Below, one piece after another: positions 17,219-37,200 of a stretch of 64,000 nucleotides of DNA. Made by a program: the position numbers and the translations under genes. Origin of the DNA: a virus; the IMG/VR virus record IMGVR_UViG_3300020391_000003, positions 1-64,000 of that record; one strand, written 5' to 3'. Positions within the stretch are counted from its first letter, which is position 1, and each line of letters begins with the position of its first letter. The notes beneath the pieces were generated by a model. The model was not told the origin of the DNA. It saw only the letters and a program-made list of their open reading frames with translations, and ran no database searches.

Positions 17219-18104
17219 ATCTTCTTTCTAGGCTTTCTAGTCTTTTTTCTAAAAATTCTATTTTCTTTTGTTGTTCTTGAATTGCTCCCACAAGAAGAGC
17301 ATTTACTTTTTCGTATTTAATTGCTTTGTATCCGTCTTTTCTGGTTTCTACTATTTCCGGAGCTACCTCTTCAACCTGTTGAGCAATCAAGCCAATATCG
17401 TGTCCAGTATATGTTGATTGATTATCATTCCAATTAAATTCTATTGCGTCTAAAGACATAACCTTAGACAAAGGTTCATCTATTAAAGTTATATCATCTT
17501 TTAATCTTTTGTCCGAAGCGTAAAAGGCAATTACATCACCTTCAACATAAAGATTACAAACTTGATTAGAATTAGGCGCTGGCCCTATATATAAATCGTA
17601 TTCCGACTGACTACTACCAACTCCTTGAGCTATACGTACCTGACTATCTTGATCCATATCATTTTTTAAATCAATAAAGGCAAATTGCACTGTCCCTGGA
17701 CCAACTTCAATATTCGAAGTAGAAACAAGTCTTTGTTCGGCTAAAACATCTCCTTTGGCTAAAACATCTCCTTTGGCTAAAACATCTCCATATACAACCA
17801 TTCCATTATGACATCCCACATTAAAAGAATTGTCCTCAATATCAGTATATCCACTTAAGCCCATGTAATCTCCAATAACATGCGCATTATATTTTCCGCT
17901 TATTAAATTGTTTGCACCATTTATTATAGAACATCTTTGACTATTTATGATTTCTCCAGCAACACCAGCTCCTATAAAATTATTTTGAGCGTAATAATTA
18001 GTAAACTTAGGGCTATCACTAGGTTGAGCTGGATTAAAATCAGTTGTTCCAGGAGCGTTAACAGGTGTAATATCTGGTGCAGTATCTGATGGATGATTTG
18101 TCAT
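17205..18104 (-). CDS. Short tail-fibre-like protein with a peptidase S74 intramolecular chaperone
   Basis: ASDKRLKDDI...FNW...DIGLIAQQVEEVAPEIV...YKAIKYEK...LVGAIQEQ. Confidence 0.85.
   Translation of the reverse strand: MTNHPSDTAPDITPVNAPGTTDFNPAQPSDSPKFTNYYAQNNFIGAGVAGEIINSQRCSIINGANNLISGKYNAHVIGDYMGLSGYTDIEDNSFNVGCHNGMVVYGDVLAKGDVLAKGDVLAEQRLVSTSNIEVGPGTVQFAFIDLKNDMDQDSQVRIAQGVGSSQSEYDLYIGPAPNSNQVCNLYVEGDVIAFYASDKRLKDDITLIDEPLSKVMSLDAIEFNWNDNQSTYTGHDIGLIAQQVEEVAPEIVETRKDGYKAIKYEKVNALLVGAIQEQQKKIEFLEKRLESLERRSSRS
17739..17790. repeat. 18-bp coding tandem repeat x3 (GDVLAK)
   Basis: ggctaaaacatctccttt units at 17739, 17757 and 17775. Confidence 0.9.
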
Positions 18105-21100
18105 GATAATTCGTATAAAAGTTGCCAGTTGTAAGAAGATGCATTTCGATCGGCATTATAATCTGTTAATCTTAAATAGTAATATCTTCCAACTCCATTT
18201 TCTTCTGATGCATTAGTACAAACCAATATCCAGTTATTACCATAATATAGACTATTAAAAACCACAGCCTTATTGCTAGTTATAGTCACACCATCAGCAT
18301 CAATTTGCCCTCCAGAGGTTTCAATTGTTTGTGTGTGTATGTTGCCAGGACCCGGAAAAAATACCCAACCAAGATGATTTGATGTGCCATGCACTTGAAC
18401 ATTTAACCACATCCATCCATCCCACCTATCATCTTCAGATACAAAAATTTTATCACTTTGTTCTGGAACATATATATATCCAAAATTTAATGTATAAATC
18501 CAAAATCCAGAGTTTAAACCTTGTAATGATGATATAACTTTAAAGTAATACATTGTGTGAGCGCCATTAGGATTATAGGTTGCATGAGATTCTCCAAATT
18601 CAGCTATAGTTCTACTTTGTACGGGAATTTCATTTCCTGCTTCATAATTCCAAGTATTATTTGAGTTATTATAATAATCTAATAAATCTAGATTTTGTGT
18701 TACATATGAATAGTAATCTTCTTCCGGCCCATCAACTAGATAAGAAATCCAAAATAAGTTACTCCAAGAAGATATCGACCCATTTGTTGGAAAATTAGTA
18801 TCATAAGCAATTCCGTTATCTAATAATCGAGTAATTCCTTTTCCTTTACCAAAAGATCCTGTTGCCAGTATTGAATTATCTGGATCATATATAATTTCTT
18901 GAAAATTATTACCATTAATTGTTATATCTTCTGGCCCGAAAAATATTTCATTTTCAAATCCATTCACTATTGATTGATTTGTTCCTCCATCTATAGTGTT
19001 TTTTACTCCAGCTCCAATAAAATTAGCTCCAGCATTGCCCGATTCTAAATTGGGCATTTCATTATTATATCCAGCAACAATAGCAGAAAAATTATCTCCT
19101 AGATTATTATCAAAACCGCCACCTATAAAAGAAAATCTTCCACTTATATTATTATTTCCTCCTCCAACAATAGAAGATGCTATTCCATCTCTATCTACTT
19201 GAGATCCTGTTATGAAGTTATTATATCCACCTCCAATAAATTTTGAATTCGTTCCATCTATTGAATCAAACCCTATAGTTGGATCATCAACTCCATTAAT
19301 AGTTAATGATCCTTTAATTTCTATTCGATTCTCTAGCCCATCAAACCTAATAAAAGAATTTTCTCCTCCAACATCAAATTGAGGATTTGGAGGGTTTCCG
19401 ATATTACCCAAGAAAAATCCAGTGACACCATTTCCAAATTCTTTTCCAACTGTTTTTATTAATCCGCCATGCCCAACAAATTCAGTTCCATCCAATGTGT
19501 CTCCTTGGCCCATTGTAAGGGTGTGAGTTATAACAGCATCTTTTGCTAATAGTAAATCAGTTGCAACACTCTCAAATTCACCGCCAAAAGATTCCCATTT
19601 TCCCGCAGCCTCATCGTTTGTAAAGCTTGCGCTTGATTCATGTGTTTCTTGTGCCATCCAATATTTAGAAGTTCCATCGTCATAAAAAACAACATCTCCT
19701 CTATCAGATGTTTCTGTTGCTCCTGTATATATTTTATCGGGTGCCCATAAACCTCTAAAAACAACCCCAACTCCCTTATTACCTCTTGCTCCTTCGATTC
19801 CTTGTTCAGATATAGAAAACGTTTGTTGTTTTATTATGGTTCCTTCTTGGCCTACGCTATTTTTAAATGTTATTGTATATGTAATTGTTGCAGATTGACC
19901 ACCAAAAGAGTTAAAATTATGAGATTCAACAACACAATGCTTCTCGTTTGCGCCCGTGCTTTTATCAATACCTCCAATAGTAACTCCATTATTGTTGGTT
20001 GAGGCCTGTACCTTAAAATGTTTAATGCTTGAAAGGGTTCCTGCAGTAAATGTTAATTCTTCTGCACCTTGAAAAACTTTAATATCTGTTCCACTTCCTG
20101 CAGAAGTAATTCCTTGAGGATTTTTGGTTAAAGAATGAGCTTCGTTACTTAATATTGCTGTGATAACATCAGAGCCGTCTTGAATACCATAAATACTTAA
20201 TGTATCTTTAGCTACATCAATTTCATCCTCACTCATTTCAACCATAACAGTAGCAACCTTAAACTTATTGTCAGGAGGATTATAGTTTATTGAAGCTTCT
20301 TCGATAAAACCTCCGTTGTAATCGCTGGTGCCCTGCTTAAGCGTACCGTGATCTCCGACAAGGGTGTACCTATATTTCAAAGTCGAATCCGGCCTTTGGT
20401 TGAGTGGGGTTGCAGTTAATGTAATCTCATCAGGATCAGGAGAACTTCCAGCAGTATTATACTTTACAGCTTGATCTCCTGTTAAATCAACTTTTCTTGC
20501 GTGTTCTCCTTCTTGAGATATAGAAAACGTTTGTTGTTTTATTATGGTTCCCGTTTCACCTACGTCATTTTTAAATATTATTGTATATGTAATCGTTACA
20601 GATTGACCAGTGAAAGAGCCAAAATCATGATCATCAATTCTTGCGCAATAATATTTTGTCTGATCGCTATTAGGAAATGCGGCTGCATGAGCTTCTCCAA
20701 ATTCAATTAGGGTAATATTTTGCACAGGATTACCAGCCCATTCATCATTATTATTATAATGATTCAATAAATCTTGATTTCTGGTTACATACGCGTAACC
20801 ATTTATGTCTCCATTTTGTAAAGAACCTTCGGTTACTTGGTTGATGTCTTGTATACCAACAAGAAACTCATTATTATTTAAATCCCCTGCATTGCTTGCC
20901 GATATATTTACAGATAATTCTTTTGTTCCTTGGAAAACTTTAATATCTGTTCCGCTTCCTGTAGAAGTGATTGTTCCTCCAAAATCTTTGGTTAAAGAAT
21001 GAGCTTCGTTACTTAAGATTGCCGTGATAACATCAGATCCGTTCTTCAAAGAATAAATTGTCATTTCGTCTGTTGCTAGAACAACACTTCCATCGGACTT

Positions 21101-24100
21101 TTCACTTATTTCAACTTTAATTTTTACAGGGCCGCCAATTACTTGTGGTACAGTATATTTAACCTCTGTCTCATCCTTGTTAAATCCGCTTATATCTAGA
21201 GGATTATTAACAAAAACAGCTCCACTAGAATCTGTTGCAGTATATTTATAGTAAACATCTCCAATTGTATTATGTGCCGTAGCGGTAAGAGTAATTTCTG
21301 CACCCGAATTAGTATCAAGATCTCCTGCGGAATTATACTCTATTGTTTGATCATTAGCAGTTAAATCTACTTTTCTTGCTACTGTTCCATCAAAAGTTTT
21401 AACTAAATTTTGTTCTGCATCTAATTCTCTTTTTTGTTTATCATTATCAATTACAGTTATTGCATAATTTATTTTGGCTGAATTTTCGCTCGTAGTCCAA
21501 TGTGAGGGCAGAAGTATATTTGTTTTAAATTGCGGCTGATTGTTAACTCCCTCAGAGTTTACCGTTAAAGATGATGAAGTAGCAGCAACATAAAAACCAA
21601 TATCATTATCATCTATGTCTGTCGGAACAGGGCCTGATTTATAATTTAATGGACTTGTTCCATCAAAAACAGTTAATATATTTTCTGTATTAGAAACATC
21701 TACAGTAGTTACTCCACCAGAGCTATCATTTTTTACAGGAACATTAACAAACTGCTGAGATTGAATTACAGTGATAGCATTAGAGCCTTCCTTCAAACCG
21801 AATATTGTAATTTGGTCTGTAGCCCTTGGATTAGTGTCTTCTTCAAATTCACCTGCGACCATTGTTTGGTCGTATGCCTTGCATTCTATCGTAACAGGCA
21901 AACTATAAATTTTCCCATTTATTGTTGTAGTTTGAGATATTTCTGCAGTTCCATCATGAGTACTGGGAATTGGAATATATACGATATTATTTGAAGTTCT
22001 CTCTGTAATTGAATCTTCGCCTATGAAAAATTGATATTCTACGTTTTTACCACCCATTGCTTGAGCAATAAAATTAGTAGTAACTGCGGTTATTTTAACT
22101 TGTTCTATTGACTCAGAATCTTGTGTTGGATTACTACCAGCAGTATCATATTTAACTGCCTGCGTATCAGCAGACAACTCAACAGTTCTTCCCTTGGCAG
22201 CTTCTATTGATTTTGAATAGGTATATATTTTTTCAAAAGCAACTTTGGTACCTGCTTCTTTGTATTGATTGTCTTTTACTTTTATTGTAAAAGTTCCTTG
22301 ATTCTCATTATCAGGATATTCACCAATTTTAACAAAAAGTTTTTTAAAACCGCCTACTTCTTCTATTGAAGTTTCTGCAGTAACATCATCATCTCCTGTA
22401 ACAGAATTTGTTTGGCTAGAAATTATATCACCATCAAGACTAAAACTTTCATTTTCAGATTCGTTTTCATCATATCTATATTCTTTGGTTCCCCTAAAGA
22501 ATCTAACTTGAGTTTTACCTGAGTTAAGATCAGTGCTACTAACAAAACCATTTTCATTTGCTGGATATGTATGATTTTCATTTGTTAGAAAAACAGTATA
22601 AGAATCTTTGCCGGGTAATGTTCCAAAAATACTAACAAAGTCTGAAGCAAGCTCCCTTGAATTATTGTTTTCATCTTTATCAGATATTGTTAGCTTTGCA
22701 ACAAAAGGAGTATTAGAATAATACTGTAAAGCATGATCTGCAAAATCAGCCAATTGAAAGCTAGCGGTGCCATCATTCTTTGTTACTGTGTGTTCTTTTA
22801 CTAATGAAGACGAGTCAAGGTTTACTCCTGTTTCAAAAATAAAATCAATATTACCATGCGTATTATGAGCTGTAGCTTCTAAATTAAGATTTGAGTTTGC
22901 ATCATTAAACTTTCCATCATAATCATAAGAATATACTTGTTGCGTAGCTTTTAATTCTGCATATACAGCAGCCGCTCCATCTGCTACAAAATTAATTGGA
23001 ATTGATCTTTCAGTTGAGGTATTTAATCCTGATGCAGAAACAATGACTGTTGTAAGTTGCGGACTAACAGTATTAATCATTTCATTAAATCCAGTTACTT
23101 TAAATTGCGCAGCAGCAATCTTAGGTTCTCCATCTATAAACGTCCCATCGTCTGGATCATATTTAAATCCACTTATATCGTATTTACCATATGTCGAAGA
23201 AGTAGGATCATCATCAAAATCGCTATACTTAATAAATTCATATTCATTATTAGGATTACTGACCTTGAATCTAACTTCATTTGGTTTAATAAAACTATTT
23301 TGAAAAATTGCTCTTATAGTAGATGCAGATGCATCAGTATCATCATCCATGGTAAAAGTTCCATCAGATAATTCATTATAAAAGAAAGAATCAGGCGTAG
23401 CATCTAAATCTATAAAAGTATATTCCTTACCATCAATTTGTCTTAGTTTTCCTTCTAACACAAGTTCGCTATTGTCAAAAAACAACCTTCCATCATCTGC
23501 AGCAAAAACAAAGCTTCCGTCACCACTAACAACAAAACCTTGACCGGTGTCATCAAGCCCTTCAAACCCTTGGCTTCTTATTTGTCCAGGTGGATTATCA
23601 CCGATTTGAATATCCTGACCCTGTATTACTGCAGATCTAATTTTGTCTGCAGTTAAGTTGTGAATTTTTGCATTTGTAATAGCTGCGTCTTCTATGTGGG
23701 CGCTACCAATTACAGCGTTAGCGAATGAATGCCACATTGGTGACACCACGCCCCCAGCTATCCTTGCAATAATAAAGTCTCCGTCATCTTTTAAAAGCTT
23801 TGGAGTTTGATTTTGCTGATCTGGATTAGCCCCATCTCCTAACCCTGCTGGATGATAATGAGAAACCTCATATTGACCAGCATGCTTAACATTCCTCAGT
23901 CCTAAATCACTTTTCTCTAATTCTCCTTCTCCTCCAGTTTTAATTCCTAATAATTCAAGCCTATCAAGCACGTCTTGAGAAAATAGTACCTGAGGATTAG
24001 ATTCAAGATCTTGCGTTTCTTCTTTTCCTCCAGGCGCTGTTGTTTCTGTCGAACTCCAATATATATATGCGGTTCCGTTATATGGCGCGGCGCCTATATT

Positions 24101-27100
24101 CAATGAACCAGCTTTAACTAAATACCCTTCTCCATCATGATAAACAACATGATCATCCCAATCAACAACATCGTCGGTGCTATTATAACTAAAAGGATTA
24201 TTTGGAACCAAAGATATAGTATTAGGAAAAGATTGACTAATATTTTGTTCAAAGTCAGCTATATCTGTAGTCTTGGCCTGCCCCAAAATTAACTTAAGCC
24301 CCTCTACATTATCAGTATTAGCAAGATCGGATGCACCAGTAAATGGGCCTTTATTTCCGGCGTGATCAACAGGTCTTACCCAAAAGTAACTAGTATCATT
24401 TACTTGTCCTCTATGAGTTATTTGTATAGACGGAGAAGATGCATCTATATCCAATACATTTGTAGCATTTATAATATCATTTGCAAAATCTTCATATTCA
24501 GTTGGAATATTATCTCCAAAAGTATATTGTATTCCATCAATTCTTCTGTATCCTGTAGCATTTTGTTCTTCTGTTAAAAACTTTGGAGGAGATGATGAAG
24601 ATCCATTGTCAAATTTTAAAAAATTATTAGATTGCCCTGTTGATTGCCACACCTCGTAATAACTAATATCATTTGGAGCAGCATCAACCAAAAGATTATC
24701 TTGAATTTGAGCATTAGGCATGTTCCAATTTAAGAAATAATTTTCAAATGCAGTAGATCCAGTAAGATTAACCACTGGACCAGGAATTTCGTCTGTAGTA
24801 ATTTTTATAGCGGGGCCAGTAGGAGCATCTGGATTTTTTGAATGAAAGTTTTTGGGTAAAACCCAAACTTTTTGTATTGGATCTCTATCGTCAACCGCAG
24901 TATATAACGCCCCACTACCAAAATCATCGAAAGGTAATAATTTATAATAGTATCCAGTTATTTCTTCACCTACTTCTGCGGTATCATCTACTATTTGAGT
25001 AATATTATCTCCAAAAGTTGCATCTCCTTCTCCTACCACCGACTTAACAAAAGTAGAAGGGTAATACATCTGATGCGATAGTGGGATCAATCCTTGTTCT
25101 GCTGCGTCTCTGTGATTTTCACCAAATTCAACTAGAGTTCTACTTTGTATGGGTTCACCAACTCCATTTCTGTCATAATCCCAAAAATTATTTGGGTTAT
25201 TATAGAAATCGAGCAAATCCTGATTTTTCGTTACATATGAGTAGTAATCTTCTGAGCCCGGCTCATTAAAGATTTCTTCAGGTACTGAAATTTCAGTAAA
25301 CGGTAAACCATCAGAACCTGTTATCTCAAAATCAGGTTGATCAGATCTATATAAATTCAATAAAGTAGTTTTTTCTTGCCTGCCTAAAAGATAATTAAAA
25401 TTAAATTTTACTTTTGTTACTTCGCTTTCAGAATCTACCGAAAAACCATTATTAGATATTACTGGAGCTGGATTATCACCGATTATTCGCTCCCTAGATA
25501 CTACTTGTCCGTCCGAACTTACAATTCCAACTTCTAATCCCACGCTTCTTTTTCCGCTTTCAGGTATTCCTACATGACCAAAAACCACATCCTCTAAGCT
25601 GTCATTAATTTCCCAAAATGGTGTCCAATCTAAGGTGGTATAATCCTGATTTAACGTCGTTAAGGGTATTGGAGGCTCTGAAGTTGTAGTGCTAATGTTT
25701 GCTTTATATACTGTTTCATTAAAAAATACATAATCCGCATTTGGATTGTTACTGTAAGAATCAATACATACTTTAAATTTATCAGACACATCTGGAGTTT
25801 GTAGCTGCCAACTTTGAGTTTCATCTCTAGTAGGAGGTAAAGTTGAAGCGCTTGATGATGCTATATATTTATAAATAGAACAATCAATATCAGAAAAAGG
25901 CCTAATTATTTTCCAGAATGACGAATCTAAATCTGGCCTTATAGCATTACCAACAGACTGAGAGGTTAAAGACTCATATATTGCCCCTTCATACAAAACA
26001 ACATCTGTATTTAAATAAGATTTAGTGTTATCAAATATTTCAATATTTCTCGTTGGTGCAACAACTAAATCATTTAAATTGTATACAGTATTTTCATTAA
26101 ATACTCCTATTTCTTGGCTTATTCCCGGACCAGAATCTGATAATGATTCATACAAAACACCGTTATATTTAACTACGTCAGAAAAAGGCAAGTTTTCTCT
26201 ATAATAGTACGTTTTCGCCGGATCCCAGTACTCATAGAAAGGTCTAATGTAAGGCTGTTTATCTGCATTCTGTTTTATTGAATTATAAACAAATTCTTTC
26301 TCAACAGGCAGGGTGCTAAAAAACGTTGCAGCTTCATCTGTAAAATATTGAGAATAATGAAATATATCTGTCTTGTCAATTACTTTATCATTATCATCAG
26401 GAGTATATATTTCAGATGAGTCAAAATTTTCTATACCTTCTGGAAATCCTCCATCTTTATATATTGAATTATTCAATTCCCTTGAATAAGTAAATTCAGA
26501 ATTAAGTTTTTCTTCCCCGATTCCAGAAAGATATCTATTTGTATGATTATCAAAAAGGTGGCCACTTAAACCAAGAACCTTTGGTTCATCTCCAAAATTT
26601 ATTTGATACTTTTCATTTGCCAACTCAACTGGAAGCCCGTCTTGATCAACAAAGTTCCATTCAAAAATTAAATCGTCCTCTCTTTCTCTAAAATTTAAAT
26701 TTTCTATTTTAATCTCAGAAGTAATCGGACTTAATTCCGCAAAATTAGAGGCTTCAACTAATCCATCCTCAGTAAAGTTAAAGAGCTGCCCTGTGCCATA
26801 TCCGTCTGACGGCCTAAATGTATAATAATAACTATAACCAAATATTTGTCTATTCACAAACGACTCTTCGGTTACCCGCAAAGATTCAGAAACATAATCA
26901 ACCTTCGGCCCAACATTTAACCAATATACAGAATTAGGCGGCGATGTTAAATTTGAATTTAAATGAGTTTGTCGAGCAATGTAAACATCTCCCTCGAAAA
27001 CAACCATGCTTTGATCTTGATAAAATTGTTCATCCTTAAGTGAAACATATTCACTAGCATCTTTAATGTTTCTAAAAAAATCTATATTATTTTGAAGATC

Positions 27101-28027
27101 ATAAATATCAATCAAAGATTCTTTAACTGGAATTCCTATATAATTAACCTCAACAAATTCAAAATCAGAGTCTTCGGAAGAAAAGAAAAAAGATGAATCA
27201 GAAGAGTTTGTTCTTTGCGAAAGGCTAAGGTCTGGAAAAAAATTTATTCCACTTAAAGTTCCTGTACAAGATCCGCCCTTTGAATCAAATGCCGATATTT
27301 CAAAAAATACGTTACGATCTAAATTTAATTCTTGCTCAGAAAAAGCTGTTTCATTTATTTGTAAATTAAAATTTGTATAACTACTTAATTTACCTGCCAC
27401 ATTAGCCGTAGATAAACTATCTTGTAAAGATACTGAATTGTTTAATGTTGCATCATCTATTAAGATATTATCTTTTGTATTTTTAATTTTAATTTCAAAA
27501 TGATCAAAAAAAGCATCTGAATTCAATTCTTCATTCACTGCTTGTCCACCCAAACTATGACCTTCAGGCGGAATTAAATCCCAAGACAAAGATATATTTT
27601 TATTTACATATTCTGATTCAACTTCTAATGTGTCTCCTACATTATCAGGACTACCAATTATTACATTATTTAAATTAACAGTATCAGGCAAATCATCTAT
27701 TTTTAAATTTGCAAAAGTAAAAGTTCCATCGAATGCTGGTGGGCTTATATATATTTGTTCTTGAACAAACTCAGACCTCGTTCCTATATCACTTACCGCA
27801 AATACTCTAACATCAAAATTTCCATAATTTCCTTTTAAAGGTACAATCGTTTGAATTCTTTCTCCAGTAAACTCATTTTGCCCAAATTCTTCATACTCTC
27901 CAGTTATCAAATCTTCTCCCCTCCCGAGTTGATATTGAAAAGAATAATTATCTGAAGTTCCAATCACCTCATAATTTGCACCTATATCGTGCAAATCAAA
28001 ACTTAAACCTATAGCTGTAGATGGCAT
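18101..28027 (-). CDS. Giant tail tip/central fibre protein (gpJ C-terminal-like, 3308 aa)
   Basis: FN3-like N-terminus (NFDVRVFAVSDIG), FWVRPVDHAGN, DUF1983-like IGSAHIEDAAITNAKIHNLTADKI, repeated ITAILSNEAHS modules and CBM5/12-like repeats. Lies directly downstream of the gpJ-like gene. Confidence 0.75.
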   Translation of the reverse strand: MPSTAIGLSFDLHDIGANYEVIGTSDNYSFQYQLGRGEDLITGEYEEFGQNEFTGERIQTIVPLKGNYGNFDVRVFAVSDIGTRSEFVQEQIYISPPAFDGTFTFANLKIDDLPDTVNLNNVIIGSPDNVGDTLEVESEYVNKNISLSWDLIPPEGHSLGGQAVNEELNSDAFFDHFEIKIKNTKDNILIDDATLNNSVSLQDSLSTANVAGKLSSYTNFNLQINETAFSEQELNLDRNVFFEISAFDSKGGSCTGTLSGINFFPDLSLSQRTNSSDSSFFFSSEDSDFEFVEVNYIGIPVKESLIDIYDLQNNIDFFRNIKDASEYVSLKDEQFYQDQSMVVFEGDVYIARQTHLNSNLTSPPNSVYWLNVGPKVDYVSESLRVTEESFVNRQIFGYSYYYTFRPSDGYGTGQLFNFTEDGLVEASNFAELSPITSEIKIENLNFREREDDLIFEWNFVDQDGLPVELANEKYQINFGDEPKVLGLSGHLFDNHTNRYLSGIGEEKLNSEFTYSRELNNSIYKDGGFPEGIENFDSSEIYTPDDNDKVIDKTDIFHYSQYFTDEAATFFSTLPVEKEFVYNSIKQNADKQPYIRPFYEYWDPAKTYYYRENLPFSDVVKYNGVLYESLSDSGPGISQEIGVFNENTVYNLNDLVVAPTRNIEIFDNTKSYLNTDVVLYEGAIYESLTSQSVGNAIRPDLDSSFWKIIRPFSDIDCSIYKYIASSSASTLPPTRDETQSWQLQTPDVSDKFKVCIDSYSNNPNADYVFFNETVYKANISTTTSEPPIPLTTLNQDYTTLDWTPFWEINDSLEDVVFGHVGIPESGKRSVGLEVGIVSSDGQVVSRERIIGDNPAPVISNNGFSVDSESEVTKVKFNFNYLLGRQEKTTLLNLYRSDQPDFEITGSDGLPFTEISVPEEIFNEPGSEDYYSYVTKNQDLLDFYNNPNNFWDYDRNGVGEPIQSRTLVEFGENHRDAAEQGLIPLSHQMYYPSTFVKSVVGEGDATFGDNITQIVDDTAEVGEEITGYYYKLLPFDDFGSGALYTAVDDRDPIQKVWVLPKNFHSKNPDAPTGPAIKITTDEIPGPVVNLTGSTAFENYFLNWNMPNAQIQDNLLVDAAPNDISYYEVWQSTGQSNNFLKFDNGSSSSPPKFLTEEQNATGYRRIDGIQYTFGDNIPTEYEDFANDIINATNVLDIDASSPSIQITHRGQVNDTSYFWVRPVDHAGNKGPFTGASDLANTDNVEGLKLILGQAKTTDIADFEQNISQSFPNTISLVPNNPFSYNSTDDVVDWDDHVVYHDGEGYLVKAGSLNIGAAPYNGTAYIYWSSTETTAPGGKEETQDLESNPQVLFSQDVLDRLELLGIKTGGEGELEKSDLGLRNVKHAGQYEVSHYHPAGLGDGANPDQQNQTPKLLKDDGDFIIARIAGGVVSPMWHSFANAVIGSAHIEDAAITNAKIHNLTADKIRSAVIQGQDIQIGDNPPGQIRSQGFEGLDDTGQGFVVSGDGSFVFAADDGRLFFDNSELVLEGKLRQIDGKEYTFIDLDATPDSFFYNELSDGTFTMDDDTDASASTIRAIFQNSFIKPNEVRFKVSNPNNEYEFIKYSDFDDDPTSSTYGKYDISGFKYDPDDGTFIDGEPKIAAAQFKVTGFNEMINTVSPQLTTVIVSASGLNTSTERSIPINFVADGAAAVYAELKATQQVYSYDYDGKFNDANSNLNLEATAHNTHGNIDFIFETGVNLDSSSLVKEHTVTKNDGTASFQLADFADHALQYYSNTPFVAKLTISDKDENNNSRELASDFVSIFGTLPGKDSYTVFLTNENHTYPANENGFVSSTDLNSGKTQVRFFRGTKEYRYDENESENESFSLDGDIISSQTNSVTGDDDVTAETSIEEVGGFKKLFVKIGEYPDNENQGTFTIKVKDNQYKEAGTKVAFEKIYTYSKSIEAAKGRTVELSADTQAVKYDTAGSNPTQDSESIEQVKITAVTTNFIAQAMGGKNVEYQFFIGEDSITERTSNNIVYIPIPSTHDGTAEISQTTTINGKIYSLPVTIECKAYDQTMVAGEFEEDTNPRATDQITIFGLKEGSNAITVIQSQQFVNVPVKNDSSGGVTTVDVSNTENILTVFDGTSPLNYKSGPVPTDIDDNDIGFYVAATSSSLTVNSEGVNNQPQFKTNILLPSHWTTSENSAKINYAITVIDNDKQKRELDAEQNLVKTFDGTVARKVDLTANDQTIEYNSAGDLDTNSGAEITLTATAHNTIGDVYYKYTATDSSGAVFVNNPLDISGFNKDETEVKYTVPQVIGGPVKIKVEISEKSDGSVVLATDEMTIYSLKNGSDVITAILSNEAHSLTKDFGGTITSTGSGTDIKVFQGTKELSVNISASNAGDLNNNEFLVGIQDINQVTEGSLQNGDINGYAYVTRNQDLLNHYNNNDEWAGNPVQNITLIEFGEAHAAAFPNSDQTKYYCARIDDHDFGSFTGQSVTITYTIIFKNDVGETGTIIKQQTFSISQEGEHARKVDLTGDQAVKYNTAGSSPDPDEITLTATPLNQRPDSTLKYRYTLVGDHGTLKQGTSDYNGGFIEEASINYNPPDNKFKVATVMVEMSEDEIDVAKDTLSIYGIQDGSDVITAILSNEAHSLTKNPQGITSAGSGTDIKVFQGAEELTFTAGTLSSIKHFKVQASTNNNGVTIGGIDKSTGANEKHCVVESHNFNSFGGQSATITYTITFKNSVGQEGTIIKQQTFSISEQGIEGARGNKGVGVVFRGLWAPDKIYTGATETSDRGDVVFYDDGTSKYWMAQETHESSASFTNDEAAGKWESFGGEFESVATDLLLAKDAVITHTLTMGQGDTLDGTEFVGHGGLIKTVGKEFGNGVTGFFLGNIGNPPNPQFDVGGENSFIRFDGLENRIEIKGSLTINGVDDPTIGFDSIDGTNSKFIGGGYNNFITGSQVDRDGIASSIVGGGNNNISGRFSFIGGGFDNNLGDNFSAIVAGYNNEMPNLESGNAGANFIGAGVKNTIDGGTNQSIVNGFENEIFFGPEDITINGNNFQEIIYDPDNSILATGSFGKGKGITRLLDNGIAYDTNFPTNGSISSWSNLFWISYLVDGPEEDYYSYVTQNLDLLDYYNNSNNTWNYEAGNEIPVQSRTIAEFGESHATYNPNGAHTMYYFKVISSLQGLNSGFWIYTLNFGYIYVPEQSDKIFVSEDDRWDGWMWLNVQVHGTSNHLGWVFFPGPGNIHTQTIETSGGQIDADGVTITSNKAVVFNSLYYGNNWILVCTNASEENGVGRYYYLRLTDYNADRNASSYNWQLLYELS

Positions 28028-28032
28028 AATTA

Positions 28033-31000
28033 TTATAAACTTAAATCTGTTAAAATTAAATTTTCAGGAGCCTCAGGAATACCCATGTCTGCTTGGGGAG
28101 GTATAGGCAATACAGGTTTTCTTACCACCCCCTTTGATTCAGCTGCAGAAAACTTAGCTATATTATACTCTAAACCTGTAATACGAAAAGCTCCCACATT
28201 ATCTTCATTAATAGACATCACCCTAAATTTTTGACCTTCAAATATTCTTTGGTTAATTGAGTTAAAGTTTTCAAAAAATTCAATACTTCCAAATCTAACC
28301 ACAGATAAATTTTCTAGCAAACCTTTTTCTTCATCTGATCCCTGCAACTCAATAACATCTTGACTTACATATAAAGCTCTAAATTCTTTTTCATTAAAAT
28401 TGCCATCAAAACTCGAGCTGCTAGTATCAAAATCTTTTATGGTTACCATATAACTATTTCTTAAATCATTATCATGAGATGATATTAATTGCAATCTAAC
28501 TGCATCTCGCCCAGATAAAGAGCTTCCAGCATCCACCAATTCAATATCAATAATATTTACATTTCTATAAAATAAATTTTCACTAAGATTGCTTTCCTGA
28601 AAAGTTTGATTGATTGATCTGAATTGTTGTTCTACAGAAGAAGAAATCTTCGTGGGTATAAAACTTGCCCTAGGAGAGTTTTTTAAAACATAAAAAGCAA
28701 AACTTTGAGATGAATTTGAAGTGGTCTCAGAGTTCACTATCTCAAAAAAAGTGTCTTTCAGCTGTAACATTTGCCCATTATCTTTAACCGCCTCACCAAA
28801 TATTTTGTTTGGATCTTGAGAATGCTGATCTATTGCTATTAAATACATTATTTCTGGATCTATATTAGAATTTCCATCTGGATTGCCAAACACTACTTCA
28901 ACCCATAATTTTAAATCTTTTATATACCATAGTCTTGGATGTGATGCGTCAAACCAAACCCACCCCAATCCGTATTTTTCAGGAGTAAAATAAATCCAAC
29001 AACTAGAAGATGCTCTATCAATCAGCTGATTAAGATAAACCCACTTGAAGCTTCCTGCTATATTTATCATTCCCCAACCAGTATCCATAAGGAATAATGT
29101 CCCAAAAAAATCAGAATAAAACCATTCTTGTGTTTGTATTCCAGGAATGCTTCTTAAAAGTAATTTTTGTTGCATTACTTGAGCCCTAGAAGCTTCAATG
29201 CTTCGTATTTCATTTTTACCTGCATCAAACAGGCCGTGCAAGATATATATTGATCCTGCCTGTATTTGATTAATTGCTTTTATCGTTTTTTCGTAATCCT
29301 CAGGGCAGACATAATGCTGTCCTCCTTTGTTTAAAAATATATCTCTACCAATGTCAGATATATCTATATTTATTCTATTGGAGTTTGTCATTGCATATAC
29401 TTTAAAAGCATTTTTTTCAACATCATATACATAAAGAGCATTATTATCAGCATATGACTCCGACAATCCTCCTGGCAAAACTCCTTCTGTCTCAAATTTT
29501 ACCCTATCTCCTTCCTTGAATCCATGATTACGTATTAAAATTTTATTAGACGCAGTATCAAATTTCACGGGCATTCTTAATGTTAAATTTTCAAGATATG
29601 TTGATTGTCCCTGGGGCCCTTTTCTTGATTCTTCATCTACATGTACAGATAAATTTCCAGAAAATATTAAAGATTGAGGCACCTGTAAAGAATTTATTTC
29701 TTCGTCTTGATTCTCTATACTAGTCTCAAAAGAGCTTTTACTTTGTATGGAATCTATACTAGACGAACCGGCCCCCGTTGCTATTACAATTTCAATTTTC
29801 TTGTAAGACGGTGAAAAATTATCATTTTTATCAAGTAAAATTTTATTTGCGTCTACAGCCAGCACCCTACCGCTTTTATCAGATCCAGCTCTCATTTCAT
29901 CAGAAATTTCTATTATTGATCCAGGAGTTAAATAAGCTCCTTCTTTTGAAGTTTCAAAAGAAACTGTTTCTGTTTCTAATTGTGAAGTAAATAATATCCA
30001 TTTTGCAAATCTTCTTGCCTCCGATTCACTCGTTACCCCCATGGCAGCTATCTCTTCTTGAATATAACCAAAACTTTTAATTGCGTCTGCATCTTCTTCA
30101 TAAATTACGTCTGGTTTAAAAGATTTCTCTCTATTATTAAATCTAATTAAAACGCTACTAATTCTTTTATTTTTCTGAACCCCACTATAAGAAAATCCTT
30201 CAGGAGATACATTTGAATTATTAAATATCATTGATGTCTTTTTTGGCCTGTCCTGAATAGAAGTTATTCTTCCATCAATATACGAGGATATTGCTCTAAA
30301 AGAAGATGCAATTAAATTTATCATTTGCAATGCATCACTTCTTTCGGTAAAATAAAAATTGCCAGAAAATCTAGGTTCAACAATCGCATGATTTTTTTGA
30401 ACTGCGCATGCTCCCAAAATTATTTTTTTTGCTCCTGTTGAAAATGCAGGAGGTGGAGTTCTAGTTGGATTATTTCTACCAAATGTACCTCCAGGAACAT
30501 CAAGCCAATGACCTTCTCCCCATTGAGATATAGTTCTACTACTTGTTTGTTGTAAATACGCAGTAGCAAGATCATTATTATCAGGATGATCTACATATGC
30601 AGCAAAATCCAAATTAAAATCAAATACCGCAGAATTATCAGAAAAATCTGGGCCTCTTAATTTTATAGTTCTAGAAGAATTTATTGTTTCTTCAATCACT
30701 CTTTCTTCAATAACAATTTCACCATTTCTTTGTTTAGAATTTTCATAAATATCATGCATATTTTCATCACCCAAAGAATGCTGGGATATAAAAAAAGCCA
30801 TCTTTTTACCTTTAAAAGATACTCCTTCTCCAAAATTTTTCTTAAACTGCTCGTCAGACAAGTAATTATCTGTTATAGATATTTCGAAAAATTCACTTGC
30901 ATCAGGATTTATTATACTAGAGAAAATAATCGGAAACCCAGATTCATTAGAGTTTTCAGCCTCTATCTCATAATCTGTTTCTACTAATTCATCACAATAT

Positions 31001-32820
31001 TTAGCAATAGCATACAATCTCCATTTATCTATATTTGTTTCATTAAGTCCATACTTTCCCAGACCATATCTAGCATCATGAATTAAATCAAAAAATATCC
31101 AAGCAGGATTATCTGACCATTCTCTTAAATTGTCGGGAATAGATTGTAAGGAAGAACCTTCTTCTTCTCCTTTAAACTTACCATTCCATGGTCCATCATA
31201 CTTCCTGGAAATTGGGTCATAATTACTTGGCAATAAAATCTTTTTAAGCTTCAAATGATAAGACCTTTTCGGTATTTGACTAAAATTTTTGCTATCAAAC
31301 TTTAAAAAAACACAGGCACTATTAGGATACACAAGATTTTCTTCTATAATTTCATTGACATATGTCATAGCCAATTCTCTTACAACATAAATACCCCCTA
31401 TATTTTTATCACTTACTGTAGGATCAGTCTCTGCACTTAATTTCAATATTTTAAAAGATGGATTTACATCCTGAAATTTTATTTGAATATCAAATTGATA
31501 TGCAGAAGTAGCAATTCCTCTAACAACAAAACATTTTTCTCCAGACCTTGTTTTAGCAATAAACAAACCAGAACCATTACCTTCTCCTGGATCCTCTTGA
31601 ATTATAGTTCCAAAAGAAGAAAGAACATAATTACTATTTTGTTGATTTGCTAAATCAATTAAATTTACTTCCTCATTATCTTCTACAACCAAAATTGTAA
31701 AAAATATTGCATGAGGATTAACATTTCCAGTTGTATCATTTCTTGCAACTCTAGTTCTTAATGAAAATTCTACTTGCCCAACATTTACATTGGAAGGCGC
31801 AAAAGTAAATATTTTTGCGCCCGCCTCTTGAGCAGCTGCAGTACTTTCATATACTCCTCCACTTACTGCGCGACTACCAACATAAGGTGGACCACCAAAT
31901 AAAACCTGATCTTCATCTTTTGTTATTCCTATTCCCCTAGCAGTTTCACTTAGTAAATTATTTTTATTATCTCCCAATTTTATTTTAGGCACAAAATTTT
32001 CTTCGGTAACTCCTGCTCGGTCACTTTCACTCAAAATATAATTTAATGAGCCCTTTGATCCATCATCTTTTTTTGGGTTTCGTATTGGGATTCCATTTAA
32101 AAAAACCGACTCTTCTATGTCTTGTTCTGAAATTAACACTCCATTTTTATTTACTGGTCCAGCAATCGCTCCTTCTGATACTAGGTCTAGTAATTCAATA
32201 GACATAAAGCTTTCCAAGAGGTTTTTATTTGTTGATTTGCTATTTCTTTTTAAATTAAAAGTTTTTTTTCTAGCAGATATATTGGTTGAACCGACCATAA
32301 GCCTTCCATACCCCAAAGGCACCGCCACTCCTTGCGAAGTTCTATTAACAGCCCCCGACATAAGAAAAGATTTTGTTGAAACTGGATCTTTTCTTTGTGG
32401 AGGCTTTGGAGGTTTAGATAATACAGTTATAGCTATTTGAGTGGCAGTTGCAATTGCCATTATTTTCGTAAGTACTGTGGCGTCAGCCCACCACTTTGCT
32501 ACAGCCGCAATAGCAGCAGCAACAGGTCCGCCTCCGGCTGCCATCGGAACAATATGAAATTCTTGATTATTACTTTTTAAATTATAATTAGTTTTATTGG
32601 CACAACTATTTCTAAATTCGGCTGCATTTTTAATACAGGTTATATCTTTATTTAGAACAATATAAGAAACACCCTCTTGTTCTTTATCAAATAAATAATT
32701 AGTAAATCCCTCAAAATTATTAGAAAGCGCAGCAATAAGATCTTGGGCACTGTCAATCTCAAACTCGAATCGTTTTCCGAATTTTTTGCCTAATTCTCCA
32801 TGTAAATACGCCTTTTTCAC
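28033..32820 (-). CDS. gpI (ubiquitin-like)-gpJ (tail hub/host specificity) fusion
   Basis: GTG start MKKAYLHGELGKKFG...FHIVPMAAGGG; VPLGYGRLMVGS; LDLVSEGAIAG; SDNPAWIFFDLIHDARYGLG; YAIAKYCDELV; EPRFS; SEARRFAKW; GLEYNIAKF. Confidence 0.9.
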   Translation of the reverse strand: MKKAYLHGELGKKFGKRFEFEIDSAQDLIAALSNNFEGFTNYLFDKEQEGVSYIVLNKDITCIKNAAEFRNSCANKTNYNLKSNNQEFHIVPMAAGGGPVAAAIAAVAKWWADATVLTKIMAIATATQIAITVLSKPPKPPQRKDPVSTKSFLMSGAVNRTSQGVAVPLGYGRLMVGSTNISARKKTFNLKRNSKSTNKNLLESFMSIELLDLVSEGAIAGPVNKNGVLISEQDIEESVFLNGIPIRNPKKDDGSKGSLNYILSESDRAGVTEENFVPKIKLGDNKNNLLSETARGIGITKDEDQVLFGGPPYVGSRAVSGGVYESTAAAQEAGAKIFTFAPSNVNVGQVEFSLRTRVARNDTTGNVNPHAIFFTILVVEDNEEVNLIDLANQQNSNYVLSSFGTIIQEDPGEGNGSGLFIAKTRSGEKCFVVRGIATSAYQFDIQIKFQDVNPSFKILKLSAETDPTVSDKNIGGIYVVRELAMTYVNEIIEENLVYPNSACVFLKFDSKNFSQIPKRSYHLKLKKILLPSNYDPISRKYDGPWNGKFKGEEEGSSLQSIPDNLREWSDNPAWIFFDLIHDARYGLGKYGLNETNIDKWRLYAIAKYCDELVETDYEIEAENSNESGFPIIFSSIINPDASEFFEISITDNYLSDEQFKKNFGEGVSFKGKKMAFFISQHSLGDENMHDIYENSKQRNGEIVIEERVIEETINSSRTIKLRGPDFSDNSAVFDFNLDFAAYVDHPDNNDLATAYLQQTSSRTISQWGEGHWLDVPGGTFGRNNPTRTPPPAFSTGAKKIILGACAVQKNHAIVEPRFSGNFYFTERSDALQMINLIASSFRAISSYIDGRITSIQDRPKKTSMIFNNSNVSPEGFSYSGVQKNKRISSVLIRFNNREKSFKPDVIYEEDADAIKSFGYIQEEIAAMGVTSESEARRFAKWILFTSQLETETVSFETSKEGAYLTPGSIIEISDEMRAGSDKSGRVLAVDANKILLDKNDNFSPSYKKIEIVIATGAGSSSIDSIQSKSSFETSIENQDEEINSLQVPQSLIFSGNLSVHVDEESRKGPQGQSTYLENLTLRMPVKFDTASNKILIRNHGFKEGDRVKFETEGVLPGGLSESYADNNALYVYDVEKNAFKVYAMTNSNRINIDISDIGRDIFLNKGGQHYVCPEDYEKTIKAINQIQAGSIYILHGLFDAGKNEIRSIEASRAQVMQQKLLLRSIPGIQTQEWFYSDFFGTLFLMDTGWGMINIAGSFKWVYLNQLIDRASSSCWIYFTPEKYGLGWVWFDASHPRLWYIKDLKLWVEVVFGNPDGNSNIDPEIMYLIAIDQHSQDPNKIFGEAVKDNGQMLQLKDTFFEIVNSETTSNSSQSFAFYVLKNSPRASFIPTKISSSVEQQFRSINQTFQESNLSENLFYRNVNIIDIELVDAGSSLSGRDAVRLQLISSHDNDLRNSYMVTIKDFDTSSSSFDGNFNEKEFRALYVSQDVIELQGSDEEKGLLENLSVVRFGSIEFFENFNSINQRIFEGQKFRVMSINEDNVGAFRITGLEYNIAKFSAAESKGVVRKPVLPIPPQADMGIPEAPENLILTDLSL

Positions 32821-32828
32821 CTTGTGCC

Positions 32829-33167
32829 TTATTGGTATACACTTTTATAATACACTCCAAATTCATCATCTCTAAGACTATATATTAAAAAAGGTATATC
32901 TATTTCATCACAAAACTTTTTATCACAAAAAGAAGGCTTCGCAGAATATTCCAAGTGAGAGTGAAAAATGTATATAACATCATGTTCAATTAAATTATTA
33001 GGTTCAATTATAAAAGAATTTTTTTTATCTAAACTAACGTTTTCACATTCTATAAAATCTATAGTTAAGCCTCTTTTTACAACCAACCCGCAGCATTCTT
33101 GAGATTTATTTTTTATTGCATATTTTTTAATTTTATCAAGTATAAACTTCTCTGGTAATTTATTCAA
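32829..33167 (-). CDS. Stand-alone JAB/MPN (JAMM) protease, gpK-like without NlpC/P60
   Basis: ECCGLV...FHSHLEYSAKPSFCD is an intact H-x-H-x7-S-x2-D motif. TTG start at 33167 overlaps the gpL stop (ORF track starts at 33200). Confidence 0.85.
   Translation of the reverse strand: MNKLPEKFILDKIKKYAIKNKSQECCGLVVKRGLTIDFIECENVSLDKKNSFIIEPNNLIEHDVIYIFHSHLEYSAKPSFCDKKFCDEIDIPFLIYSLRDDEFGVYYKSVYQ
32838..32842 (-). promoter_or_regulatory. GTGTA motif, candidate late promoter
   Basis: ataaaaGTGTAtaccaataaggcacaagGTG, 17 nt before the 32820 start. Confidence 0.45.
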
Positions 33168-34296
33168 TTGGGTATGCCTCCGTACCAGGAAATCCCCCAA
33201 AATTTAAAGCATCTACTCCTTTTTCTGCTCTATTAAAAGGCAGTAACCTTTCGTCTTTTCTTCCAAATCTTTTTTTGCAAGCATCTAAGGTCTTATTGCA
33301 TTCATCTTTTGCCCAGTGTTCTTGATCAAAAAATGGATTGTGTAATCTAGAACTTTGATGATCTTTCAAGCAAACAAATACTTGAGCTGATCTTTTATGT
33401 GGATCTAAACTATCATGCTTAGATATAATTTTTACAATATCATTTTTTTGATAACCAAACTTTTCATTCGCATTTACATCGGACGTCCATTCAGGAATGT
33501 TTTCTTCTGTTAACGTATCAGAGGAATCCCATCTTATTATATCTTCATCATCAACGATTCCGGTTTCTCCATTTATTTTATAAGACCTTAATATAAACGA
33601 AACAGGATCTCCTGTTTCAGTCAAGCATAAATTTTTTCCAGAGTTATTTTCTATAGGCGCGCCACTGTATCTGCATCCAATATCACACCTATATGTCCAA
33701 TTACAATAATTAGACAACACCACCCTAGCAGGAATAAAAGAGTCTTCCAACTCTAAAGCTGATACCAATTCGAAAGAAATTTCAGTTTTATTTTCCGTTA
33801 TTTTTTTACTAATAAAATACACTTCATCTCGAAAATGCGCATTAGGATCAGATTTTCCAAAAGGATTAACTCCTTTATTATTTAAATTTCTATTTTGAAA
33901 ATTAACATCATCTAAAAATCTTACAAATGTTCTTCTTCTTGTCACCTTACAATTAGCAAAATCTTTATTTGAATGAACAATTTTAGAGAACAAGCCTTCT
34001 GGATTTGATATTCTTAATTTTGGTCTAGGTAATTTTCCATCAGAAGTAGATTCAAAATCGTCTGCCTGTATAGGTAGAGGCTGATATTCTTTACCCTGCC
34101 AAACCACTGCATTTGTTCCATTTATCATAGCGCAAAACCTATAAACAGCCTCTGCCCCAATGTTTATTTGATACATATCTTTTAAAGCCTCAAAGTCAGC
34201 CTGTATATTACTAAAATCAATTTCAAATAAAGTTACAACTGTATCTGGAGTAATTGAAGCTAATTGCTTGCTAAAATTTGATTCTGATCTTCCCAT
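33160..34296 (-). CDS. Lambda gpL-like minor tail protein (four-Cys, Fe-S-binding type)
   Basis: VTLFEID, WQGKEYQPLPI, RPKLRISN, KVTRRRTFVRFLD, CNWTYR...C-x-Y, CNKTLDACKKRFG, FGGFPG. Confidence 0.92.
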   Translation of the reverse strand: MGRSESNFSKQLASITPDTVVTLFEIDFSNIQADFEALKDMYQINIGAEAVYRFCAMINGTNAVVWQGKEYQPLPIQADDFESTSDGKLPRPKLRISNPEGLFSKIVHSNKDFANCKVTRRRTFVRFLDDVNFQNRNLNNKGVNPFGKSDPNAHFRDEVYFISKKITENKTEISFELVSALELEDSFIPARVVLSNYCNWTYRCDIGCRYSGAPIENNSGKNLCLTETGDPVSFILRSYKINGETGIVDDEDIIRWDSSDTLTEENIPEWTSDVNANEKFGYQKNDIVKIISKHDSLDPHKRSAQVFVCLKDHQSSRLHNPFFDQEHWAKDECNKTLDACKKRFGRKDERLLPFNRAEKGVDALNFGGFPGTEAYPIE

Positions 34297-37200
34297 TACA
34301 TGTAAATTTTAATTTTTGCCGACTGAGGATTATAAAGCCCGTCACTTTGAATTTCTATACTTGAATTGTAAAAACCCTTTGCTACTCCGAATACTATCGG
34401 ACCAGTTTTGGCGGGCAATTCGTGGTCATTTGCTTTTCCAGGAAGTGTTTCTTGCCAGACTTGCTTACCATATTGAGATTTAGTTAAGTAATATTCATTA
34501 AATGGAGGAGAATCAGAGACAAGTTCTATTTTTCCATAATTAATGTCTCCTCTATTTGTTACTGAATTATTAGACCAGTATTTGGAATGATACTTATTTA
34601 TATACGCTTCATATTGTTGATCTTCTGTGATTAGATTATAAATAATTCTATTTCCCGAAGAATCAACAAAATAATAAAGTTTTTCACTTATTGTTGCATC
34701 GTCGTATATAATATCGAAAAAGGCTTCTTGACTTCCTTGTAATATATTAATTGAGTTATTTTCAAAAAATTGAGTTGCTATAAAGTATCTGCAACTCTCT
34801 GGCATTGAGGGTATACTGGGTGATGTTGGGTGTTTTATTATTGTTCCATCGTTTTTTTGAGTAAACACAACTTCTTTACCATTTTCTTTCACAGGTTCCC
34901 ACTCAGACTTATCTGTGCCTCCTTGCATTAACTTAAAAGACTGACCTCCTTCAACTCCTTGTGTGAAATTTTTGCTTAATTCTATTTTGGCTCCCTGAAG
35001 ATTAAACGGCAGACTTGTTGATAGAGTTTGTTGTATATCAGATGGTATAGTAAATCTTAAATCCAAAACTCCTGATTTTTTTACAACTGGAATTGACTGC
35101 TGATTTCCTCCCCCAACACTACCCAAAAAATAAAATGAATCTTTGTTTGGATCATTAAATTTCATTAGACTTATTTGCACAGGATCATCTCCGATATTTT
35201 TAATATTTACTCTAAATCTCCATGGAGACAATCTATTAATATTATCTTCTTTATTTGCTAGAATTATTTGAGAATTAAAATTTAATTCTCCAGCAGAAAG
35301 TGTTGGTGGAGAAACCGAGGAATCAATTTCCTGCGCAGAAAAGTTAAAAGGGAACTGCTCAAAAGAGGCGGAAATACTATGATTATTTTTAAAATTGTAT
35401 TTGTGAGACCATTTTTGACATATAAAATTTTGAACTCTATCGTAAGGAGATGGAGGCTTAAATAAAAACGGAACAGAACCAATATGTTGCTCTAGAAAAT
35501 GCAAAATAGCATAAGCTTCATCGTCGTCTCTGTTATTGAAATTTAAATCTAATTTAAGCAAACTTTCATTTATTCCATCTTTATAAACCTGATTATACCC
35601 TTCTACAGATTCAATATTTAACATCCTGGGTTCTTGATTTACAGATAAACCAAGCGAAGGCTTCCAAAAAAAATCTCTAGACCAATATTCTTTATTGATA
35701 TCAGTGAAATAACCGCTTTCTCTAGTCCATTCTGAATTTTCTTGCACAGGAGGCTTCCCCGCAGCAGAATCTCCAGACCAATAATAATACTTATGATTAC
35801 CAGTTGAAAATGCTATGTCATTCAACTCATATTGAAAAGAGTCATCATAATCTGCAGGTCTTTTTACAAACAAATCTTCAGACTTTTTTAGAATTGATGT
35901 ATCAAAATTTGAAAGCTTTATATTTAAATCATTATTATTTTCAAATGCAAGAGAGTGAGAAAAGTTTTGACAATAAAAGTTTTTAGTTTGCACCTCAACA
36001 GAATCATAAGGATGAAAAGCAGAAGACCCATCCCATCTAAATCCAGATATTCCTTGAGAATATTTTAAGTTAGATGACGACGAGTCTTTTTGATGTTGTC
36101 CTTGATGATTTTCTAAAAAGTGAATTATAGCATTTGCCTCTTTATTTGTCCTATTTTTAAATTCAAGATTTGCTTCAAATTTTACTGAATTTATTCCTCT
36201 TGGTCTTATTTCATAGTATCCATTTCCAAACTCACTTTTAATATTTAGAGTCGTAAAATCTACCGAAGAACCGTAATCTGCATCAAAAAAGAACTTGTCT
36301 TTAGTCCACTTGTCCGGATTTTGAGACGGAGAAAATGTTAATGCTGATAAAGTTATGTTATGGTTACTTTTTTTTTCAAAAGTTGATATTCTAGAAGAGC
36401 TATCAGCTTTTTTAATTTGTATTCTAGAACTTATTCCATCAACTTCTCTACTAACGGGATTAGCGGGTGCAGTTGGCACTGTTATATTTGATTGATCTGT
36501 AAGGCCATCAACTCCCCTTGATCCATCTTCTATTCCGTACCATCTTTCGTTTCCATAATTATACATAGCCAAAACATATTTCGGATCATTTATCTTTGTA
36601 ATATATAACCAGTTTCCCGCAGGACCAAACCTTTGATCAAATGCATCATTATCTAAAAATAAATATCCATTTTCAGTATGCGATTTTTCAGCATACATCC
36701 AAACTCCACTATTTATAGATGGTTGATTTATGTCTCCAATAAAAAACCATACCGCATTAGCATTGACAGGGCTAATGAATATCCAACCTAATTGAGGAGA
36801 AAAAAGCCATCCGTTGTTTACGTTTGGAAAATTCCAAAATGTGAAATTAATCTCAGATGAAGTACCTGTATGAGATTTTAAAAACCAAGAGCTTTCATAC
36901 CAATCAGCTATAGTTTTTGTTGCATCTAAAGCCTGTATAATTTCAGAAAAGTAGTACATTGTTCTACCTTCGTTTTCTCCAAACAACCTCCAATGACTTT
37001 CTCCAAATTCAGCTCTTGTTCTACTTTGTACGGGATGAGGAGTTCCATCTTGATCATAATCCCAAGCATTACTTGAGTTATTATAATATTTCAATAGATT
37101 TGCGTCCCTAACTACATACTGGTCGTAATCCTCTTGGCCGAATATTGGAATGTCTTGAAAATTTTCTTCTATACTTAATATTTCGTAAGAACCGTTAGCT

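Follow-up and report, generated by a model that had tools for sequence, protein, structure and literature searches.

A small, predicted helical domain occurs as an in-frame insert in three tail-tip proteins of an uncultured marine phage

Positions 1 to 64,000 of the IMG/VR virus record IMGVR_UViG_3300020391_000003 (184,324 bp in all, G+C 34%), hereafter called the window, carry a lambda-like set of tail-tip genes in which one small domain recurs in three different proteins. The carriers of this module, all encoded on the minus strand, are a protein with two tandem gpM domains (the double-gpM protein), a gpI-gpJ fusion and a giant tail fibre. Profile comparisons point to five real copies, four of a long form and one of a short form in gpJ, and indicate that the module represents a previously undescribed family of small domains that is rare and occurs in phage-like contexts only. 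We demonstrate the homology of the copies, their status as insertions, their mosaic distribution among related phages and their predicted fold, and we discuss a probable function in adhesion.

Four of the copies are recovered by a hidden Markov model (HMM) that was built solely from homologues outside the genome, so that their homology is established independently of the window. In the giant fibre, independent E-values (iE) of 2.4e-19, 2.8e-13 and 2.7e-21 were obtained for copies P1a (residues 914-990, nucleotides 25058..25288, minus strand), P1b (residues 2409-2460, nucleotides 20648..20803, minus strand) and P1c (residues 3102-3166, nucleotides 18530..18724, minus strand), respectively. Copy P3a of the double-gpM protein (residues 125-196, nucleotides 36942..37157, minus strand) scores 4.6e-28 and has the canonical long form. 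P1a is an in-frame loop insert of 77 residues, P1b lacks the central loop and lies within a beta-rich paralogous domain, and P1c, with 65 residues, is located just ahead of a Trp-rich C-terminal domain. Eighteen invariant columns are common to all four. Their positions, first noted in a prediction made from the sequence alone, are confirmed by translation and by the HMM, as is the homology that the prediction had assumed between them. Apart from these copies, nothing scores near them in a six-frame search of the window and of the whole 184-kb genome.

The fifth copy, in the gpI-gpJ fusion (residues 737-795, nucleotides 30436..30612, minus strand), keeps both helical halves of the module and is missing the central loop of about 18 residues. 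By itself it is not significant against the HMM (iE about 1). However, a profile of this site from three orthologues aligns with the family in hhalign across the C-terminal half (probability 89.5%, E 2e-6), and the site is detected directly in a 74%-identical orthologue (iE 9.7e-7) and in a 51%-identical orthologue (iE 8.8e-6), where the match covers model positions 6-64 and thus nearly the full model. The gpJ copy is thereby supported, indirectly, as a short-form member of the family, and the proposal that one module occurs in frame in three different tail genes is borne out. The core string [FWY]G.xH[WYF] is carried, genome-wide, by the gpJ copy and P3a alone, and neither the profile nor the core-motif scan found the module or its short form in any other protein of the genome.

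A sixth copy had been claimed at the C-terminus of the double-gpM protein (nucleotides about 34449-34619). This candidate was rejected, as hhalign assigns it a probability of 6.7% over 10 columns, the corresponding site scores iE 68 in the orthologue from the close relative L014, and the orthologue P0006 has no module there. Another stretch of the same protein (about residues 296-338) was considered as a decayed copy and likewise rejected; MAFFT pairs it with a real copy in P0006, yet its equivalent in L014 has an iE of 13.

A profile of the four long-form copies searched against 1.84 billion representative proteins (E ≤ 1e-3) gave 19 matches, of which six are repeat-protein artefacts and about 13 clusters are real. 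All real matches lie on metagenome contigs of marine or sediment origin whose gene neighbourhoods are phage-like and include gpM/gpL/gpK sets, PhoH, a Collar tail fibre, a 3987-residue fibre with an S74 chaperone, and Mtd_N. Those carriers elsewhere that could be annotated are tail fibres (Collar, S74 chaperone, tail-fibre PHROGs). The family consensus (alignment A4) consists of DY..YV, DLL.YYN, N.W.Y with an acidic turn, PVQS[KR]T, EFGESHW and G..EGR, and its core residues are strongly kept across unrelated carrier proteins of different phages. The terminal signature H-[YW]-x3-G-x2-EGR is present in P3a and most family members, degenerate in the gpJ copy and absent from P1a-c. Of 25 family copies, 12 contain a Dx[DN]x[DN]G-like string, which reads D-Y-D-Q-D-G in P3a and D-Y-D-R-N-G in P1a.

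Searches of curated and cellular collections underline the rarity of the family. No cellular protein was found either by the exhaustive profile search of the 1.84 billion representatives or by scanning 185,579 species genomes for the pattern, a result that leaves the host mimicry raised in the original prediction without support. An hmmscan of the four copies against Pfam, with E-values up to 10 admitted, returned one chance-level match to 7TMR-DISMED2 (E 0.024, one copy), NCBIfam gave no match, and a PDB sequence search gave chance-level beta-lactamase matches alone (E 0.5 or worse). Scanning IMG/VR with a module alignment (A1) yielded two loci alone, both with a fibre of the P0005 type, and a locus search with the whole double-gpM protein yielded no relatives. 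A feature search of the ESM Atlas with the long and short forms was uninformative, producing short hypothetical clusters at 0.85-0.89. Two of the carriers, P0017 (on L008) and P0019, are tail-fibre-related proteins with a His...Cys-x2-His-x2-Met pattern, and the module apparently lies between the ligand segments. The pattern suggested cupredoxins that hold the module in a loop, an identity that a comparison with plastocyanin (E 0.69) did not confirm.

The distribution of the module among orthologues strongly supports its reading as an in-frame insertion and not an ancestral core domain, because orthologues and paralogues without it have conserved flanks and cleanly bounded gaps. These data fit gains that are derived and that recombination has spread. 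For the giant fibre, 120 orthologues of 1.8 to 3.9 thousand residues were found on marine phage contigs, and any copy of the module is present in just four of them. Two relatives with flanks 80-89% identical to those of P1a have 4 residues at this site, compared with 77 in the window. Among the 119 orthologues in which both flanks are present, 113 have a linker of 0-20 residues and a single one, P0038 (90.8% identical overall), has the module. Three orthologues (P0064, P0087 and P0097) carry an unrelated insert of 72 residues in the same loop, so that the loop is permissive and a hotspot for in-frame insertions. At the P1c site, a linker of 5 residues is found in L016, whose fibre shows a clean gap, and in three further orthologues; the module is shared there with P0038 alone.

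The P1b site permits a comparison within the protein as well as between proteins. In an alignment of nine domain copies, the insert of about 50 residues is found in one of the four paralogous beta-rich domains of the window fibre and in the orthologue on L006, a Tara scaffold. Two ITAILSNEAHS repeats had been taken from the outset as a sign of insertion, and they indeed occur at fibre residues 2334 and 2622, with the module in the first unit only. In P0038, a central segment of about 110 residues is exchanged for a module-less version of 58 residues between almost identical flanks, which amounts to a cassette swap. The L006 fibre also has an additional in-frame insert of about 53 residues in its Gly-rich region (L006:4700-4870, fibre residues about 1565-1620), at a site that is empty in the window. 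This insert shows the short-form motif Y..Y...DL...H-Y...G.

The P3a site is occupied in the close relatives L014 and L015. In close relatives the P3a copy is 81-83% identical, with the loop and the C-terminal helix nearly invariant. In P0006, an orthologue with 44% identity, a clean gap of about 70 columns spans the site, and the two module copies of this protein lie at two positions that are empty in the window protein. Similarly, gpJ orthologues at 35% and 25% identity show a clean gap exactly at the position of the gpJ copy. Among all close relatives examined, the gpM and gpJ copies are at fixed sites, and L016 keeps both of them in combination with a fibre that has no copy at all.

A Trp-rich domain with repeated G-W-[IVL]-[FYW] strands directly follows P1c (window 18104-18520) and P3a (about 36330-36900), and is also present in gpJ (residues about 1215-1330). 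L016 and L006 have this domain without the module. Between the C-terminus of the fibre and the double-gpM protein, similarity is limited to the module.

The structure of the module was modelled with AlphaFold2 from a 12-sequence alignment with P3a as the first sequence. The model has a mean predicted local distance difference test (pLDDT) score of 81.9 and a predicted TM-score (pTM) of 0.68, with residues 11-55 above 94. It consists of helices at residues 8-14, 16-23 and 45-60 and a two-stranded mini-hairpin (27-28/37-38) around an acidic turn, and it allows the confident prediction that the module folds autonomously as three helices plus a mini-hairpin. In the lower-confidence part of the model, residues 6 and 66 each form a lone bridge. 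By elimination these pair with one another, so that the ends of the domain would meet, as is needed for an insertable domain. Modelling the module inside its host beta-domain gave a mean pLDDT of 46.9, which is too poor for use.

No solved structure in the PDB resembles this model (Foldseek best E 3.4; VIA best Z 2.0). The nearest shapes in the ESM Atlas are all weak (TM 0.44-0.57) and comprise hypothetical proteins of Uroviricota along with clusters from bacteria or archaea. The latter include HemolysinCabind, GT2/GT1 and PhyH domain clusters (TM 0.47-0.52), and the top weak matches found by Foldseek in BFVD are giant-virus glycosyltransferases and an FkbM methyltransferase; all of these fall below significance.

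A tree of 25 copies places all copies from the window lineage in one clade (support 95/99), within which the fibre copies form a sub-clade (98/99) next to the gpM copies. A single lineage clade points to spread of the module inside the lineage. The copies are old relative to strain divergence, as they are 35-50% identical at the amino acid level and 52-61% identical at the nucleotide level. Shared DNA strings had been cited as a sign of recent spread or gene conversion. The strings are present, and among them is a shared 17-mer that mostly reflects conserved peptide and codon bias. The best pairs have 26 and 27 identical codons against 19.9 and 20.0 expected from codon bias, which is marginally above expectation. 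Recent spread or gene conversion is not supported by the nucleotide identity and codon sharing.

These observations are probably best explained if the module is an exposed and dispensable accessory unit of the tail tip that contributes weak adhesion to the host surface and is shuffled by recombination. The module is a small domain, predicted to fold on its own, whose length of roughly 45-75 residues varies with its form and with the flanking linker. Two short N-terminal helices (DY..YV and DLL.YY) are predicted to be followed, in the long form, by a hairpin loop with W-x-Y and a Dx[DN]x[DN]G-like turn, and then by a long C-terminal helix (PVQS[KR]T-EFGESHW...G..EGR). According to this model, it has entered the double-gpM protein, gpJ and the giant fibre in frame, at surface loops or at linkers between domains. 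Cassettes bearing it are gained and lost by recombination among co-circulating phages, with the result that occupied sites differ even between 91%-identical strains. The module might then help the tail to adhere weakly to some component of the host surface, for instance a glycan, possibly aided by Ca2+ at the acidic loop. Adhesion is the most likely function in view of the restriction of the module to tail proteins, its dispensability, its polymorphism between strains and the conservation of the loop and the last helix in carriers that are unrelated.

Such a mode of action would be similar to that of the immunoglobulin (Ig)-like and carbohydrate-binding domains that decorate the tails of other phages. 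Ig-like domains are reportedly found on structural proteins of tailed phages, and Ig-like, FN3 and carbohydrate-binding decoration domains of tail, fibre and capsid proteins are thought to give weak accessory adhesion. Like the module, these decorations are small, autonomous in-frame additions whose presence varies between related phages and which are exchanged by recombination. In contrast to them, the module is predicted to be formed by three helices and a mini-hairpin rather than a beta-sandwich, is far rarer, and has no relative in Pfam, NCBIfam or the PDB. It is thus a shuffled accessory tail domain of a familiar kind that belongs to a new family.

The possibility of Ca2+ binding is suggested by sequence comparison. 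Ca binding by the linear motif Dx[DN]xDG is established, and the motif occurs in the EF-hand and in at least eleven other contexts (PMC3123361). As in these Ca loops, the motif of P3a and P1a lies in a turn between structured elements. However, the module is without the canonical Glu at position 12, and the motif is missing from P1b, P1c and the gpJ copy.

Several points weigh against an adhesive accessory unit. Since no similar structure has been solved, the fold offers no functional anchor. About half of the family copies, among them P1b and P1c, do not have the Dx[DN]x[DN]G-like loop. The fibre copies are about 48% identical to one another, while their flanks are about 90% identical to those of orthologues without the module, which implies that the immediate donor is unsampled or that copies diverge quickly. 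Finally, because close relatives are without some of the copies, the module could equally be near-neutral baggage.

The last point leads to a reading, which we regard as unlikely, wherein a compact self-folding peptide is accepted by tolerant loops and spread by recombination with no selected function. The patchy distribution among near-identical strains would be expected of such a passenger, and the P1a loop also takes the unrelated 72-residue insert. Moreover, H-W...EGR, the best conserved C-terminal signature, is gone from the fibre copies, one of which has also lost the loop, so that these copies may be functionally degenerate. Strong conservation of the core across unrelated carriers from different phages is difficult to reconcile with the absence of selection, as are the 81-83% identity of P3a in close relatives, the near invariance of its loop and C-terminal helix, and the occurrence of the module in tail proteins only. 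To a similar extent we doubt that the copies in gpM, gpJ and the fibre serve as docking units or clamps that bind each other or neighbouring subunits and brace the tail tip without a part in host recognition. Although the presence of the same module in three proteins of one assembly, its small helical build with ends that probably meet, and the fixed sites of the gpM and gpJ copies in close relatives would suit this role, a module that is absent from many relatives cannot be required for assembly. The L016 fibre has no copies though those of gpM and gpJ are kept, 116 of the 120 fibre orthologues have none, P1b is missing from the closest strain (P0038), and distant gpM and gpJ orthologues have no copies or have them elsewhere.

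A far less probable function is that of a docking tag through which glycosyltransferases encoded by the phage would recognise tail proteins as targets for glycosylation. Glycosyltransferase genes do directly adjoin the tail genes, and the nearest weak structural look-alikes include accessory regions of glycosyltransferases and the FkbM methyltransferase. However, every structural match is below significance, the same glycosyltransferase block is conserved beside the module-less fibre of L016, and neither the module nor its short form occurs in any further protein of the 184-kb genome. In a genome of 34% G+C, coding sequence that is rich in Tyr/Asn and biased to AT could produce similarity by chance, with no real module behind it, and the sixth claimed copy proved to be exactly such a false positive. 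For the other five this reading is already refuted; the long-form copies have E-values of 1e-13 to 1e-28 with the independent HMM, indel boundaries are clean and the fold prediction is confident.

A more specific version of the adhesion model, which we hold to be doubtful, is that the module is the phage-borne long form of a widespread, uncharacterised bacterial H[YW]...G..EGR helical repeat and acts as a Ca2+-assisted glycan-binding unit. The repeat, with the pattern Y...NPD[LV]...H[YW]...G..EGR, is presumably carried by bacterial RTX-type proteins and glycan-modifying enzymes; we found no curated family for it. The likeness invoked in the original prediction holds for the family consensus and P3a, which begin with Y..Y[VI]...DL and end with H-W-x3-G-x2-EGR, and for two phage short forms, namely the second copy of a gpJ orthologue and the extra insert of the L006 fibre. 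No bacterial protein was reached by sequence in the profile search or the pattern scan. The long form also differs from the repeat in its additional loop of about 18 residues, and P1a-c do not have the H-W...EGR end. The weak shape matches to RTX and glycosyltransferase clusters may echo the repeat, and fall short of establishing a link. If this version is true, the variants with and without the module in tails would be the first tractable system in which a function could be assigned to the orphan repeat, and host range would be tuned through insertion of a mini-adhesin into loops.

DUF4214 (PF13946), which is likewise small and rich in helices and is found in surface proteins, RTX proteins and proteins associated with glycosyltransferases, was also compared. 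Its motif pattern is unlike that of the module, and hmmscan of the four copies gives no PF13946 match. The tail fibre P0005 has a DUF4214-like stretch just upstream of its module. An RTX-DUF4214 protein binds O-antigen according to a 2026 preprint (bioRxiv 10.64898/2026.09.02.748959). A glycosyltransferase of the GT1 type in the window (634 residues, 13327-15231, plus strand) has a sub-threshold DUF4214 match (22.3 bits compared to a cut-off of 23.2).

Tail-tip proteins decide which cells a phage can attack, and the locus described here offers an unusually clear case of mosaicism at the level of domains, with one mini-domain in three proteins of one tail tip. Variation in site occupancy between 91%-identical strains provides natural pairs with and without the module in which a role in adsorption could be addressed, in a group of abundant, uncultured and large marine phages. 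Since neither a curated family nor a solved structure exists for the module, it is a clean target for structural work. Its study may also offer a handle on the similar orphan repeat of bacterial surface and glycan-modifying proteins, and a compact module that tolerates insertion into loops could be used as a scaffold for engineered fibre display.

The phage belongs to a lineage of uncultured marine siphophages with genomes of about 180-200 kb. No cultured phage is near, and the best match to gpJ has 27-34% identity across less than half of the protein. The tail-tip genes begin with that for a tape measure protein of 2202 residues, which is followed by two genes without a family match and then by the gene for the double-gpM protein (1077 residues, 34296..37529, minus strand). 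The latter protein matches PF05939 (Phage_min_tail) in two stretches (E 4.2e-26) and belongs to phrog_14. Ahead of the tandem Phage_min_tail domains it has an N-terminal extension of about 390 residues, inside which P3a lies. Next are gpL and a JAB/gpK-like protein, followed by the gpI-gpJ fusion (1595 residues, 28033..32820, minus strand), the central tail fibre or host specificity protein. It matches phrog_31 (6e-123) and PF13550, and a match to phrog_32 (tail assembly protein I) at residues 3-189 shows that gpI is fused to gpJ.

Downstream of the fusion is the giant tail fibre with its three module copies (3308 residues, 18101..28027, minus strand), which contains, besides the four beta-rich paralogous domains, a Gly-rich region and the Trp-rich C-terminal domain. 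A protein with an S74 chaperone domain (299 residues, window 17205-18104, minus strand) comes next, and a block of glycosyltransferase genes on the strand opposite to the tail genes completes the order. The S74 intramolecular chaperone is thus encoded by its own 299-residue open reading frame downstream of the fibre gene and is not fused to the fibre, an arrangement that is likewise found in L006 and L016.

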